DNA of 64,000 nucleotides from an uncultured Burkholderiales bacterium (GTDB lineage Bacteria; Pseudomonadota; Gammaproteobacteria; Burkholderiales; Burkholderiaceae_C): positions 3,977 to 67,976 of the forward strand of contig CADEDE010000004.1 of assembly GCA_902825995.1 (NCBI GenBank). The letters run 5' to 3'. Both the position numbers and the translations under genes were made by a program. How positions within the stretch are numbered: position 1 is the stretch's first letter; each line of letters starts with the position of its first letter. This document shows positions 22,601-29,106 of this stretch, one piece after another. The notes beneath the pieces were generated by a model. The model made no database searches. It was not told where the DNA came from and worked only from the letters and a program-made list of their open reading frames with translations.

Positions 22601-22679
22601 GCGCTGGGCCGCTCCCGAGCCGACCGAGCGCCCCCTCGGGGGGGGCAGCCAGCCAAGCCAGCGTGGGGGCGGACATTCA
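22601..22679 (-). repeat. Family-1 element, copy C1 (intergenic hisA-ribF)
   Basis: Minus-strand read: TGAATGTCCGCCCCCACGCTGGCTTGGCTGGCTGCCCCCCCCGAGGGGGCGCTCGGTCGGCTCGGGAGCGGCCCAGCGC. The stem CCCGAG/CTCGGG is fully Watson-Crick. Confidence 0.8.
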
Positions 22680-22685
22680 GGCCAG

Positions 22686-22761
22686 CGCCGGGCCGCCCCA
22701 AGCGGCCTGAGTGCCCCCTCGGGGGGCAGCGAGCGCAGCGAGCGTGGGAGCGGATATTTCA
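22686..22761 (-). repeat. Family-1 element, copy C2 (its TGA is the hisA stop codon)
   Basis: Minus-strand read: TGAAATATCCGCTCCCACGCTCGCTGCGCTCGCTGCCCCCCGAGGGGGCACTCAGGCCGCTTGGGGCGGCCCGGCG. It lies 6 nt from copy C1. Confidence 0.85.
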
Positions 22762-23502
22762 GGCCTCGGCCAGTTGGTCGGCGCGCTGCTGGGCCGCCGC
22801 GAAATCGAGCGCGCCGGTGTAGATCGCACGTCCGCAGATCACGCCGTCAACGCCCTCGCCTTGGATCGCGCACAGGCGCTCGATATCGGCCATGCCGGCC
22901 AACCCGCCCGAGGCGATCACCGGGATCGTCAGCGCCTGCGCCAGCTTCAAGGTGGCCTCGATATTGATGCCGGTGAGCATGCCGTCGCGGCCGATATCGG
23001 TATAGATCACGCCTTCGACGCCGTAGTCCTCGAATTTCCTGGCCAGGTCGATGACCTCGTGCCCGGTGAGCTTGCTCCAGCCATCGGTGGCCACCTTGCC
23101 GTCCCTGGCGTCGAGGCCAACGATGATGTGGCCGCCGAAGGCGGTGCAGGCGTCGCGCAGAAAACCGGGGTTCTTGACCGCGGCGGTGCCGATGATGACG
23201 TAGCTCAAGCCGTCGTCGAGGTAGCGTTCGATGGTGTCGAGGTCGCGCAGACCGCCGCCGATCTGCACCGGAATTTGATCCCCCACCGCACGAACGATGG
23301 CCTTGACCGCCGACTCGTTGACCGGCTTGCCGGCAAAGGCGCCATTCAGATCCACCAGGTGCAGGCGCCGCGCACCGGCGGCGAGCCAGCGCCGCGCCAT
23401 CGCCGCGGGATCTTCGCCGAAGGTGGTGGCGGCTTTCATGTCGCCCTGTTCGAGGCGCACGCAGTGGCCGTCCTTGAGGTCGATCGCGGGTATCAGCAGC
23501 AT
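22759..23502 (-). CDS. hisA: ProFAR isomerase (1-(5-phosphoribosyl)-5-[(5-phosphoribosylamino)methylideneamino]imidazole-4-carboxamide isomerase)
   Basis: 247 aa ([30 protein letters not shown]). Confidence 0.95.
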
Positions 23503-23527
23503 GGTGGGGAATGGGGGAGAGGAACGC

Positions 23528-24187
23528 TCAGGGCTTCCATTGCAGGAAGTTGCGGTACAGCGTCAGGCCGTCGGCGGCGCTCTTCTCCGGGTGGAACTGG
23601 GTGGCAAAAATGTTATCGCGTGCCATCGCCGAGGTAAAGGGCGCACCGTAGTCGGTGAGGCCGGCACTGTGGCGCGCCTCCGACGGCTCGGCGTAGTAGC
23701 TGTGGACAAAGTAGAACCAGGCGCCGTCGGGGATGCCGGCCCAGAGCGCGTGGCGATGTTGGCCGTGGCGCGCCTGGCGCACGCGGTTCCAGCCCATCTG
23801 CGGCACCTTGTAGCGGCTGCCGTCGGGTTGCAGCCGGCCATCGAGCAAAAATTTCCGCACGCGCCCGGCGATCAGGCCCAGGCAAGGCGTGTCCTGCTCC
23901 TCGCTGTGGTCAAGCAGCATCTGCATGCCCACGCAGACGCCAAAAAGCGGCTTGTTGGCGGCGGCGTGCAGCACGGCATCTTGCAGGCCCGATTCGCGCA
24001 ATTCACGCATGCAATCGCGAATGCCGCCCTGGCCGGGCAGCACCACGCGCTCGGCGGCCATGACATCCTGCGCACGCTGCGTGATCAAGACCTCGACGCC
24101 GCTGCCCGCGGCCACATGCAGCACCGCCTGCGACACCGAGCGCAGGTTGCCCATGCCGTAATCGACGACGGCAACGGTTCTCGACAT
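23528..24187 (-). CDS. hisH: Imidazole glycerol phosphate synthase, glutaminase subunit
   Basis: 219 aa class-I GATase (LPGQGG, GVCVGMQ, QFHPEKS). Confidence 0.95.
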
Positions 24188-26308: not shown

Positions 26309-26538
26309 CGCGCACCCCGCGTGTACATCTCGTCGCGCGTGAGGTAGCGCCCTTTGCTGGGCCCCCAGCTCTTGAACTCCAGGGCCTCGCGCATGGCGCG
26401 CTCGTAGGCATCGTTGCGGTGCATCTTTTCAGCCACCAGTTCGCCGACCAGGCGCGACACGCTGGTATTGCGCCGCGCGGCTTCCATGCGCGCCCAGTCG
26501 GCGGCGCCGTCTTCCATCGTGATAGTCACGTTTTTCAT
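26305..26538 (-). CDS. vapB: Antitoxin partner of VapC (ribbon-helix-helix-like)
   Basis: 77 aa. MKNVTITMEDGAADWARMEAARRNTSVSRLVGELV fits a beta-strand followed by helix-helix. It lies immediately upstream of, and overlapping, the PIN gene. Confidence 0.75.
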   Translation of the reverse strand: MKNVTITMEDGAADWARMEAARRNTSVSRLVGELVAEKMHRNDAYERAMREALEFKSWGPSKGRYLTRDEMYTRGAR

Positions 26539-26547
26539 GGCGCGTCT

Positions 26548-26605
26548 TTCGTGGCAATGTCACTGGTTTCGTGTTCCACTATTTTCGTGTTGCACGAACT
26601 TCGTG
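26548..26605 (-). promoter_or_regulatory. Candidate vapBC operator / internal promoter region
   Basis: The 67-bp, relatively AT-rich gap between the hisD stop and the vapB ATG holds four TTCGTG direct repeats (26548, 26568, 26584, 26600). The last forms the 13-bp palindrome CACGAACTTCGTG (26593-26605). Confidence 0.35.
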
Positions 26606-28393
26606 TCAACCCGTCAATGGCAACACCATCTCGCGCTCGCCGTCATTCACCTTGCCGGTGTAGGCAAACCCAAAGCCTTCGTAGAAAGCCCCCACCGGGT
26701 TCTCGGGCAGGTGCGACAAAGCAATCTGTGCCACGCCCATGCGCCTGGCCTCGCCGATCAACCAGCGCATCGCCGCCTGGCCGTGGCCTTGGCGCTGGTA
26801 ACGCGCATCGATCATCAGGCGCCAGATATAGAGCTGGTCGGCCGGCTCGTCGGGATCGCGGCGCGCATCCCAGAGCAACAGGAAGCCGACGGGCTCGCCG
26901 TTCGAGTACAGGCCCATCGGCCGGCCGGCCGGCTTGTACGCGGCCTGCGCGAGGGACTTTGCATTCGTCGCGACGAAACGCGCCTGCTCGGGCGTGATGC
27001 TCAGCGCGATGAGTGAGTCGACATCGGCGTCGCGCACCGGCCGCACTTCAAAGTGCGGCGGCGCCGCGGCTACCGGCACCGCGCCGAGCCGCATTTCGGC
27101 CGCGCGCGCGTGGGCTTGCAGGCCCTCGCCATAGGCCAGTTCGGCGGCAATCGGACCCAGCGTATTGGCGCCCGCCGCGCTCACCTCGATCAGGCTCGTG
27201 CGCTTTTGAAAGTCATATACGCCCAGCGGCGATGAGAAGCGCGCCGTGCCCGAGGTCGGCAGCACGTGGTTCGGGCCGGCGCAATAGTCGCCCAGGCTTT
27301 CGCTGGTGTAGGCCCCGAGAAAAATCGCGCCGGCATGCTTGAGCAGCGGCTCCCAGCGCTGCGGCTCGGCACTCGACACTTCGAGATGCTCGGGCGCGAT
27401 GCGGTTGCTAAGCGTGCAAGCTTCTTCCATCGAGCGCGTGAGGATCAGCGCGCCGCGGCCTTCGAGCGAGGCGCGGATGATTCCTTCGCGCGGCAGCGTC
27501 GGCAACAGCCGTTCGATGGACTCGCGCACCGCGTCGAGATAGGCTGCATCGGGGCACAGCAGCAGGCTCTGCGCCAGTTCATCGTGCTCGGCCTGCGAAA
27601 ACAAATCCATCGCCACCCAGTCGGGTGGCGTCGTGCCATCGGCAATGACGAGGATTTCGCTGGGGCCGGCGATCATGTCGATGCCGACCTGGCCGAAGAC
27701 ATGCTTCTTCGCGCTGGCCACATAGGCGTTGCCGGGGCCGGTGACCTTGTCCACGCGCGGGATCGTTGCCGTGCCATAGGCCAGCGCGGCGATCGCCTGC
27801 GCGCCGCCGATCGTGAAGGCGCGCGTGATACCGGCCACATGCGCGGCGGCGAGCACGAGGGCATTCTTCTCGCCGCGCGGCGTCGGCACGACCATCACGA
27901 TCTCGCCCACGCCCGCCACTTGAGCTGGCACCGCATTCATCAACAGGCTCGACGGGTACGCCGCCTTGCCGCCCGGCACATAGATGCCCACGCGATCCAG
28001 CGGCGTGACCTTCTGGCCAAGCAGGCTGCCGTCTTCGTCGCGGTAGCGCCACGATCGGCCGCAGGCATCGAGCTGGCGCTCGTGGTAGTTGCGGATTCGC
28101 GCGGCCGCCGCTTGCAGGGCATCGCGCTGCGCGGGGGTGATCGAGCCAAAAGCCGCGCGCATTTCGTCGCGCGTGAGCGTCAGCGCCGCCATCGACGCGG
28201 CCGCCAATGCATCGAAGCGCGCAGTGCACTCGAGCACGGCGGCATCGCCGCGGGTGCGCACGTCGGCGAGGATTTGGACCACGCGCGATTCGATCTCACC
28301 GTCGGCCTGCGCCGACCAATGCCGCAGGCGCGCGAATTCGGCCTCGAAATCGGCGTTGCGGGTGTCGAGGCGGCGCAGCTTCATTTGGCTCAT
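26606..28393 (-). CDS. hisD: Histidinol dehydrogenase fused to a C-terminal GNAT acetyltransferase domain
   Basis: 595 aa. Residues 1-~436 are HisD ([15 protein letters not shown], ending [10 protein letters not shown]). An 11-aa linker ([11 protein letters not shown]) is followed by a 148-aa GNAT fold ([29 protein letters not shown]). The reading frame is continuous with no stop. Confidence 0.85.
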
Positions 28394-29106
28394 CTTGGAA
28401 TCGCCGACTCGAAGGCCTCGATCAGCGGCCGGATCGCACCCTGCTTCAACTTCAGCGCGGCCTGGTTGACGACCAGGCGCGATGAAATTTCCATGATCGT
28501 CTCGACCTCGACCAGGTGGTTCGCGCGCAACGTGCTGCCCGAAGACACCAGATCGACGATCGCATCGGCCAGGCCGGTCAGCGGCGCCAGCTCCATCGAG
28601 CCGTAGAGCTTGATCAGATCGACGTGCACGCCCTTGTCGGCGAAATGCTGGCGCGCCACGCCGGTGTATTTGGTGGCCACGCGGATGCGCGAGCCCTGCT
28701 TCACCGCGCTGGCGTAGTCGAAATCGGCGCGCGTGGCCACGCTCATGCGGCAGCGCGCGATCTTCAGATCCAGCGGCACATACAGGCCGTCACCGCTGTG
28801 TTCGAGCAGCACATCCTTGCCGGCCACGCCGAGATCGGCGCCGCCGTACTGCACATAGGTCGGCACGTCGCTGGCACGCACCAGCACCACGCGCACGTCG
28901 GGCCGGCTCGTCGCCAGGATCAGCTTGCGCGACGTGTCCGGGTCTTCCTGCACCTCGATGCCGGCCGCTTTCAACAGCGGCAGGCATTCGTCGAGGATGC
29001 GGCCTTTGGAGAGGGCGAGCGTGATCAGGCCGCCCGCCGGGCCACCCCAAGGAAGGCCTGCGCCCCCTTGGGGGGCCGCGAACGCAGTGAGTTTGGGGGT
29101 CGTCAT
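28390..29106 (-). CDS. hisG: ATP phosphoribosyltransferase (short form) with a repeat-derived N-terminal extension
   Basis: 238 aa. The HisG core starts at [14 protein letters not shown]. The first ~26 codons are repeat copy E. The ATG overlaps the murA TGA. Confidence 0.9.
29035..29105 (-). repeat. Family-1 element, copy E (murA stop / hisG start)
   Basis: Minus-strand read: TGACGACCCCCAAACTCACTGCGTTCGCGGCCCCCCAAGGGGGCGCAGGCCTTCCTTGGGGTGGCCCGGCG. Translated as [24 protein letters not shown]. Confidence 0.85.

Follow-up and report, generated by a model that had tools for sequence, protein, structure and literature searches.

Stop-codon-anchored copies of the Beta-proteobacterial repeat element in an uncultured Burkholderiales bacterium and related genomes

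Background

The Beta-proteobacterial repeat element (BRE) was described in 2011 as a repeat of about 90 bp (75-91 bp, 69% GC, with a criterion of >70% identity) in Bordetella, Polaromonas, Delftia, Rhodoferax, Acidovorax, and Azoarcus (Hot et al. 2011; BMC Genomics 12:207, PMC3110155). According to the same study, BREs are mostly intergenic, some overlap the ends of open reading frames (ORFs) by a few bases, and copies lie in frame inside about nine genes. Tandem arrays, with few or no bases separating the units, behave as variable-number tandem repeats (VNTRs), and one BRE locus of B. pertussis is transcribed as the small RNAs (sRNAs) bprJ1 and bprJ2. The overlap with gene ends and the in-frame copies were therefore already known. 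Here we analyze the copies of this element in a 64,000-nt stretch of contig CADEDE010000004.1 from an uncultured Burkholderiales bacterium (hereafter the window), and compare them with copies in other genomes with respect to their position directly behind stop codons.

Several other systems of small repeats share features with BRE. Mycobacterial interspersed repetitive units (MIRUs; Supply et al. 1997, as summarized in PMC3184786) are units of 40-100 bp that lie between the genes of operons, frequently in tandem, and can serve as VNTRs. Their small ORFs overlap the adjacent genes of a polycistron, the same coupling logic as would apply to copy A of the window and to a hisA-BRE-hisF junction in the relative L120 (see below). 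However, MIRUs are unrelated in sequence and belong to Actinobacteria, and BRE forms such ORFs in a minority of cases, in a frame that varies between copies. Repetitive extragenic palindromes (REPs) and the bacterial interspersed mosaic elements (BIMEs) are likewise high-copy, GC-rich structured repeats at gene 3' ends and inside operons. About half of the E. coli REPs lie <=15 nt from a stop codon, and they affect translation only at <16 nt (Liang et al. 2015, as summarized in PMC12306157). In contrast to BRE, REPs are single imperfect palindromes of about 35 nt (21-65 nt) with a GTAG/CGTC head and a typically alternating orientation, mobilized by REP-associated tyrosine transposases (RAYTs); BREs are about 85 nt long, have three hairpins, form head-to-tail arrays, and begin with a conserved block (G)CCCCCACGC instead of the GTAG/CGTC head.

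Rickettsia palindromic elements (RPEs; Ogata et al. 2000, as summarized in PMC3184786) are structured repeats lying in frame within genes, like copies B, D1, and D2 of the window and the HisG extension described below, but they are unrelated in sequence and 105-146 bp long, whereas BRE is mainly intergenic. Finally, miniature inverted-repeat transposable elements (MITEs), such as Correia/NEMIS, RUP, and ERIC, are also short, non-autonomous, and polymorphic for presence or absence, and can alter the expression signals of their neighbours. BRE differs from them in having no terminal inverted repeats (its ends, CCCCC... and ...X', are not complementary); the long-range complementarity between CCCCCA and UGGGG is internal, and the flanking repeats, of 3-9 nt, have no fixed length.

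Copies of the element in the window

A motif search, and later a covariance model, identified seven solid copies of one repeat in the window (A, B, C1, C2, D1, D2, and E) and one divergent relative (F). The copies and one ORF running through copy A are listed below with their covariance-model scores and match bounds.

5732..5811, + strand: copy A, 80-nt insertion (model R1, 65.8 bits; match 5733-5812); its 5' neighbour is the host ATGA at 5728-5731, and it terminates in a further ATGA (5808-5811), the start of the MoCF-domain gene
5728..5811, + strand: ORF of 27 codons bridging copy A (predicted translation); the ATG at one end overlaps the stop of the cysZ-like gene, the TGA at the other the downstream ATG
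20445..20525, - strand: copy B, 81-nt in-frame insertion in the IleS N-terminal leader (41.1 bits; match 20448-20525)
22594..22676, - strand: copy C1, second unit of a doublet (33.1 bits, E 7e-5; match 22588-22670)
22677..22758, - strand: copy C2, directly 3' of the hisA stop at 22761-22759 (58 bits; match 22671-22752)
29025..29102, - strand: copy E, 78-nt insertion directly 3' of the host ATGA at 29106-29103 (54.9 bits; match 29021-29101)
32321..32401, + strand: copy D1, 81-nt in-frame insertion (27 aa) in an M48 peptidase ORF (46.8 bits; match 32319-32401)
33026..33106, + strand: copy D2, near-identical second 81-nt in-frame insertion in the same M48 peptidase ORF (47.4 bits; match 33024-33106)
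42006..42093, - strand: copy F, divergent relative (14.9 bits, E 0.25; marginal match 42006-42086)

Copies A, C1, C2, E, and F are situated at gene ends, and B, D1, and D2 within ORFs. By Pfam assignment, A lies between a CysZ/EI24-like gene (4865-5731) and a MoCF-domain gene (5808-6602), B within ileS (17616-20549), the C2-C1 doublet between hisA (22759-23502) and ribF (21568-22542), E between a murA ORF (29103-30476) and hisG (28390-29106), D1 and D2 within the M48 peptidase ORF (31435-33510), and F between a cusC-like OEP gene and a cusB-like gene.

The first-pass annotation of this DNA had pointed out that a TGA at the 5' edge of the element repeatedly coincides with, or adjoins, a stop codon, and that a preceding A turns it into a start codon. 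The individual observations hold. At copy A the TGA at 5729-5731 is the stop of the CysZ/EI24-like coding sequence, and the preceding A gives an ATG at 5728-5730; at C2 the TGA at 22761-22759 is the hisA stop; at E the TGA at 29105-29103 is the murA stop, and the ATG at 29106-29104 is the sole start codon available to the hisG ORF. C1 follows C2 without a gap, its ATG (22676-22674) standing directly after the C2 TGA (TGAATG, 22679-22674), and the TGA of F (42093-42091) begins 1 nt after the cusC-like TAA (42097-42095). In the intragenic copies the same triplet is out of frame, as had been stated (B, 20529-20527, in ileS; D1, 32315-32317, and D2, 33020-33022, in the M48 peptidase ORF).

Copy F has a BRE-like 5' half and a different 3' half, and with a model E-value of 0.25 it was rejected as a full member of the family. 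It resembles a degenerate element that fills the murA/hisG junction in L120 (4104-4248) and L121 (1-208), with the pattern ACC.ACC.CCGAAGCG.CTTCG.CGCTCCCCC...; hisG has a new ATG in that relative. Copy F belongs to this degenerate type and not to the core BRE.

Family assignment and host range

Judged by sequence comparison, the repeat is the BRE of Hot et al. The published B. pertussis BRE (supplement of PMC3110155) is 79-85% identical to the window copies A, C2, and E, and 91-95% identical to copies from Bordetella, Castellaniella, and Azonexus matched by the same covariance model. The size and composition also agree, with window insertions of 78-81 nt and a GC content of 0.69-0.81 in the model matches, and so do the head-to-tail arrays, represented by the C2-C1 doublet in the window and by runs of 2-4 units in L014, L072, L074, L078, L010, and L081. 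In one of these loci, L014 (Achromobacter sp. ESBL13), the whole 375-bp contig consists of four or more head-to-tail units with a period of 82-83 nt, so BRE arrays evidently break short-read assemblies. No Rfam family matches any copy, either at the gathering threshold or at E<=5. A literature search with the motif string returned nothing relevant, and the family was reached through the review of small bacterial repeats by Delihas.

The element is GC-rich, about 80-90 nt long, and in an alignment of 64 sequences contains three hairpins (H1, H2, and H3), arranged from 5' to 3' as (G)CCCCCACGCU; H1; CGCUGCC; H2; X; CUUGGG-GCGG-CCCGG(C)G; X'. H1 has a variable 5-bp stem with a UUC or UGC loop and frequently a bulged U, and H2 is CCCC-GA/AA-GGGG. 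In H3 the outer stem, X/X', varies freely yet remains complementary and encloses the conserved CUUGGG-GCGG-CCCGG(C)G. Window copies A, C2, and E represent a short form without the H1 stem; A and E share the left two thirds and have unrelated X/X'. A conserved peptide was rejected, since each of the three frames is used for the 3' half in one copy or another (LGAARR, WGGPA, GRPGG) and the length of H1 varies in non-multiples of 3.

A collection of species-representative genomes was scanned with the central hairpin plus one exact 3' motif, which gave at least 119 loci. All of these listed loci are from Betaproteobacteria, and the hosts among the matches listed are Comamonadaceae, the Rubrivivax/Aquincola group, Alcaligenaceae, Burkholderia, Paraburkholderia, Pandoraea, Rhodocyclales, and Thiobacillus. 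The copy statistics below are drawn from 178 copies at about 125 loci.

Compared with the description by Hot et al., the present analysis adds a three-hairpin model backed by covariation, a quantified anchoring to all three stop codons, insertion exactly at ATGA overlaps with the corresponding empty sites, ORFs of the form ATG...TGA that bridge adjacent genes, and a much wider range of hosts (Sphaerotilaceae/Rubrivivax group, Burkholderia, Paraburkholderia, Pandoraea, Thiobacillus, and Methyloversatilis). The pattern at gene junctions does not reveal a new kind of system.

Empty sites and the origin of the 5' TGA

The first-pass annotation had regarded the TGA as a conserved part of the element. 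However, in alignments of 64 and 145 sequences the family conservation begins at (G)CCCCC, and the preceding 0-10 nt vary. Comparison with empty sites, which had been proposed there as a check, gave the same answer at both junctions where it could be made. At murA/hisG, the relatives L122 and L125 read GTC ATGA CCATTACG and GGG ATGA TCACACTGGCA, respectively, with the murA stop overlapping the hisG start in both, whereas the window has GG ATGA, then 78 nt ending in TGA (29027-29025), then TCACGCTCGCC. These empty junctions indicate that the murA/hisG ATGA is host sequence and that the BRE entered directly behind it. HisG homologues at about 90% identity are 212-213 aa long, start with M(I/T)..., and have no extension; a 26-residue extension occurs in only two clusters. 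Thus HisG of the window is predicted to start now at the old ATG and to be read in frame through copy E, gaining 26 N-terminal residues. In a separate clade (L123, 647-754, and L124, 94-201; HisG cluster P0002, 250 member sequences) the murA/hisG BRE is longer by an internal segment, in part a duplicate of the CTTGGGGC region, and the HisG extension comprises 35 residues as opposed to 26 in the window.

Similarly, three relatives (L128, L130, and L131) have an empty site ...ATGA ACTTCGG at the position of copy A. The C-termini of their CysZ-like proteins (..ALPAP*, ..ALPPP*) match the window ..ILPLS* on the 5' side, and a fourth, 98.7%-identical relative, L127, is filled with the same copy. 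The 3' end of copy A (CGTACTGGC ATGA) recreates an ATGA at the start of the MoCF-domain gene, and in this way the 27-codon ORF comes to bridge the two genes. A reading based on L128 alone, in which copy A was inserted within the last codons of the cysZ-like gene and brought a new stop and start, is refuted by the C-termini and the ATGA of L130 and L131. Both reconstructable intergenic events (E and A) therefore lie exactly 3' of a host ATGA overlap, and at both the 5' TGA is host sequence, contrary to its assignment to the element.

Anchoring to stop codons

In the 13 nt 5' of the C-run, TGA is present in 52% of the 148 solo or first-in-array copies, TAA in 12%, TAG in 15%, ATG in 51%, and ATGA in 26%; random 13-nt windows contain the same strings in 13%, 1.3%, 3.2%, 14%, and 2.9% of cases, respectively. 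A distance test of the kind that the first-pass annotation had suggested, run on the survey loci, confirmed the enrichment: a stop codon of a same-strand ORF of >=100 codons is situated 0-10 nt upstream of the C-run in 64 of 139 solo copies (46%), compared with 4.7% of random positions. Distances of 0-9 nt between stop and C-run are about equally frequent, and beyond that the frequency drops to the background level. The element-adjacent stops are TGA, TAA, and TAG in 49, 13, and 9 cases (TGA 69%), to be compared with a usage of 72.8, 13.6, and 13.6% over 698 called genes in the same loci. Units inside tandem arrays, which are preceded by another unit, have a 5' TGA in 3 of 26 cases and an ATG in 5 of 26.

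Taken together, the empty sites, the genome-typical stop types, and the scarcity of TGA before tandem-internal units argue that the 5' TGA of intergenic copies is usually the stop codon of the neighbouring gene. The proposed preference for stop codons and ATGA junctions is thus upheld as a positional pattern, but not its specificity for TGA, since all three stops are involved.

In terms of gene context, 59 copies are in the sense orientation between co-directional genes, 25 are antisense between such genes, 19 lie in convergent regions, and 5 in divergent ones. At the 5' side, sense co-directional copies leave a median gap of 5 nt (interquartile range (IQR) 3-8); on the 3' side, a median of 32 nt (IQR 11-94) separates the end of the conserved GGCCCGGCG from the point where the following gene is called to start. 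The 39 'inside gene' calls obtained in other genomes with our own caller were not used as evidence; most cannot be relied on, since an element without stops allows spurious ORFs to pass through.

Reading frames through the element and proposed translational coupling

An ATG lies between stop and C-run in 43 of the 69 sense copies that adjoin a stop, and at least 15 of the 43 ORFs starting there terminate <=14 nt from the conserved 3' motif, next to the following start or overlapping it. The cores are open in all three sense frames in 75% of copies, compared with 58 +/- 4% of shuffles, and the antisense frames show no stop depletion. A 5' ATG, an uninterrupted frame across the core, and a stop triplet in the X' zone occur together in 24 copies; ATG and stop share a frame in 17 of these, where 36% is expected (p 6e-4). 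As the copies are related by descent, the p-values are generous. In L120 the hisA-BRE-hisF junction reads ATGA...TGAgATG, giving a small ORF that overlaps or adjoins the flanking genes like that of copy A. In the window, the C1 ORF comprises 41 codons and ends with a TAA (22553-22551) 8 nt ahead of the ribF ATG (22542).

The intragenic inserts B, D1, and D2 are 81 nt each. Copy B sits after AAATGAC, with GAC present at both its ends, in a part of IleS where orthologues have variable leaders of 3-25 residues (e.g., P0197, MSEPKTDYRSTLNL); the window protein reads MSEPKSN, 27 aa, and then DYRATLNL. The M48 peptidase has 691 aa in the window and 636 aa in the L126 orthologue, with two alignment gaps at D1 and D2, the first of 27 residues.

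We propose that BREs accumulate directly behind stop codons, mostly oriented with the gene, that their 5' TGA derives from the host, and that the surviving copies are tolerated, translation-coupled insertions; we put the probability of this reading at roughly 60%. Copies E and A would have been inserted immediately 3' of a pre-existing 4-nt stop/start overlap (ATGA). A ribosome terminating at the host TGA could then restart at the overlapping old ATG and translate through the hairpins, which the openness of the sense frames would permit. Either the frame would continue into the downstream gene, as in HisG with its 26 added residues, or translation would end within the 3' stem, at a TGA lying against or overlapping the start of the downstream gene, as in the copy A ORF and at hisA-BRE-hisF of L120. 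Both outcomes would keep the downstream gene coupled by termination and reinitiation, with a logic like that of MIRUs. Intragenic copies such as B, D1, and D2 would survive only as stop-free inserts of 3n nucleotides in tolerant segments. The family identity, the covarying structure, the anchoring to stops, the host origin of the 5' ATGA at two sites, and the in-frame insertions rest on direct observation; that the small ORFs are translated and preserve coupling, and that insertion is targeted rather than filtered by selection, are the inferred parts of this proposal.

Several observations weigh against it. The survey loci were chosen through one exact 3' motif, the copies are related by descent, so that the statistics overstate their independence, and genes on the survey loci were called with a simple codon-usage caller of our own, which is reliable for stops and less so for starts. 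Antisense copies also hug stop codons, by their 3' end, the stop of the upstream gene tending to lie inside or next to X', which argues for a cause at the DNA level rather than a strand-specific RNA role. The 5'-edge TGA of B, D1, and D2 cannot be a host stop, and the D-type sequence TGAG(N)GCG recurs in other genomes (L049, L092, and L034). As many as 26 of the 69 stop-adjacent sense copies have no ATG at all, so that coupling cannot be a general rule. Finally, the bprJ1 and bprJ2 sRNAs of B. pertussis come from the strand complementary to the sense strand used here.

Insertion preference or selective survival

The positional pattern might also arise if insertion were roughly random and the surviving copies were those that left coding sequences, ribosome-binding sites, and promoters intact. 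This explanation, which we regard as unlikely, fits the small number of copies in divergent, promoter-containing regions (5, compared with 84 co-directional and 19 convergent), the 3n length and the location in variable leaders or loops of all intragenic copies, the contact of both orientations with stops, and the lack of a fixed-length target duplication. Other observations speak against it. In co-directional regions with >=30 nt of spare intergenic space, 16 of 19 copies are in the first fifth (median relative position 0.04; Kolmogorov-Smirnov p 6e-10), and the two reconstructable intergenic events are both exactly at an ATGA boundary. Moreover, no start needs protection in convergent regions, yet the 5' end is <=12 nt from the co-oriented stop in 10 of 16 copies, and the stop of the other gene is <=15 nt from GGCCCGGCG in only 4 of 16. 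Nevertheless, targeting and the survival of harmless insertions are indistinguishable here.

Signals possibly carried by the element

The first-pass annotation offered as its second suggestion an element that brings terminal stop and start signals with it and remodels gene ends. In a fuller form of this idea, the repeat would behave as a portable mini-cistron, with both the 5' (A)TGA and the 3' TGA(+ATG) moving as part of it. The 3' end gives this idea partial support. In many subfamilies the 3' stem ends in CTGA, often followed by ATG, and CTGA(C)ATG stems are found at non-orthologous loci of different genera (A, L075/L104, L057 at 7401-7481, L093, L062, and L048 at 7733-7820); the stem pair of copy A, GTCAGTACG/CGTACTGAC+ATG, recurs in Paraburkholderia and Pandoraea metagenome-assembled genomes (MAGs; L075 and L104) and in a Rubrivivax MAG (L057). 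Some arrays (L070, L082, and the step from C2 to C1) consist of exact ATG...TGA mini-ORF units abutting as TGAATG. The excess of in-frame closure and the 5' TGAG(N)GCG common to D1, D2, L049, L092, and L034 point in the same direction. The 5' half of the suggestion fails, since the five empty sites assign the ATGA of E and A to the host, tandem-internal units mostly lack TGA and ATG, the three stops occur in genome-typical proportions, and the spacing between stop and C-run is flat. As a whole, the portable mini-cistron is therefore doubtful, its 3' component holding for some subfamilies.

Covariation and a possible role as RNA

In 144 distinct copies aligned to the model, 94.3% of the paired cells are complementary, compared with 77% in shuffles, a figure somewhat inflated by the fitting of the alignment to the model. 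Changes on both sides of a pair were counted in 534 cells versus 165 in shuffles, and pairing falls to 41-60% when partners are slid. Each of the seven outer H3 pairs is represented by all four Watson-Crick types, and RNAalifold reports compensatory changes at 14 of 22 pairs. Two invariant U-G pairs are possible on the sense strand only. Thermodynamic folding of the single copies A-E was no better than that of shuffles at the same GC (z -0.2 to -1.6), and the structure therefore rests on covariation.

Such a structure within the ribosome footprint of a stop codon might act as a functional RNA, through stalling of terminating ribosomes with lowered translation, as for REPs, reinitiation set by a 'ribosome termination structure' (RTS; PMC7518266), or REP-like protection of the upstream mRNA from 3' exonucleases; the distance to the stop codon would then be the functional feature. 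The 0-10 nt window would fit the <16-nt rule for REPs, of which 260 of 496 in E. coli lie <=15 nt from a stop (Liang et al. 2015, as summarized in PMC12306157), and the covariation, the sense-only U-G pairs, and the sense bias of 59:25 are in agreement with such a role. On the other hand, antisense and intragenic copies are common, the sole reported transcripts (bprJ1/J2) come from the opposite strand, and single copies do not fold better than shuffled sequence. We consider an RNA function of this kind improbable as the cause of the pattern.

Flanking repeats and a possible mode of spread

A more speculative possibility, to which we give little weight, is that BRE spreads as a 'junction mimic' without a dedicated transposase, by copy-choice or microhomology. 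X', often ending in ...CTGA(C)ATG, would anneal to similar host stop/start junctions, and a unit would be copied in behind the host stop, leaving the host motif on the 5' side and the version of the element on the 3' side. Such copying could account for imperfect direct repeats of variable length, for complementarity between the 5' flank and X, and for head-to-tail arrays, as well as for the anchoring to stops and the operon-coupling ATG...TGA mini-cistrons. The 5' flank does resemble X' and the 3' flank (mean ungapped match 4.98 vs 4.43 permuted, z 6.2) and is complementary to the internal X (z 4.0). Clear flank repeats are seen at C2, where the last 8 nt of the hisA end recur as GGCCTGAA in the 3' stem, and in L048 (GGACTGAG), L001 (GCGCTCAT), L093 (TGACATGA), and L075 (ATG[A/G]AACAA); A has CATGA and E has TGA. 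A fixed-length target-site duplication was not supported: the longest common substring is only weakly above permutation (4.45 vs 4.12), and as the repeats, of 3-9 nt, vary in length and position, there is no classical target duplication. The resemblance of the flanks could stem from copying guided by microhomology, from duplications that have decayed, or from motifs common to the junctions.

Recoding at the TGA, by selenocysteine insertion or programmed read-through, has in its favour only the bare arrangement of a UGA followed by a stem-loop and is rejected as already contradicted by the data, given that TAA and TAG are enriched equally, that orthologues without the element end at the same, ordinary stop, that the genes concerned are hisA, murA, and a cysZ-like gene, and that neither a selenocysteine insertion sequence (SECIS) nor any other Rfam family was matched.

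Other features of the window and its relatives

In L120 (9478-11064) and L126 (15061-16645), hisA is followed by a BRE and then by hisF-rsmD-coaD. In the window (21568-23502), hisA is followed by the BRE doublet and then by ribF-ileS, and no hisF was found among the Pfam-scanned ORFs. A genome rearrangement breakpoint seems to coincide with the C2-C1 doublet. The hisA 3' end bears a BRE in all three genomes (window 22677-22758, L120 10229-10310, and L126 at about 15808-15883), and the subtypes differ in H1 and X/X'; this end is either a recurrent hot spot of insertion or the site of an old, remodelled copy.

The his operon of the window also encodes a histidinol dehydrogenase fused to a C-terminal GNAT acetyltransferase (26606-28393, - strand; 595 aa; PF00815 and PF00583). 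L120, L122, and L125 have this fusion too, and HisD of L126 is plain (442 aa). Between hisD and hisC lie a PIN-domain (VapC-like) ORF and a 77-aa partner ORF (25859-26538, - strand). A YoeB/YefM pair takes this place in L125 (5682-6184), so different toxin-antitoxin modules occupy one operon junction.

The LemA ORF (30560-31420, + strand) has 286 aa compared with 197 aa in relatives, its LemA domain beginning at residue 125, and the start is probably over-extended in stop-poor, GC-rich DNA. The cusB-like ORF (40326-42524, - strand) has C-terminal CusF-like and heavy-metal-binding domains; as the raw ORF extends upstream across copy F, the actual start should be treated with caution.

Implications

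Since its naming in 2011, BRE has been without a proposed function or insertion logic. The data suggest that it is the REP equivalent of many Betaproteobacteria; seven copies fall within the 64 kb of the window. As predicted from the sequences, a BRE can extend essential proteins such as HisG and IleS or introduce short bridging cistrons into operons. For annotation this means that the starts of genes behind BREs are easily miscalled, and that low-complexity inserts of 26-27 residues in housekeeping proteins are BRE-derived. The family is well suited to the question whether a selfish repeat persists in operons by preserving the coupling between termination and reinitiation.

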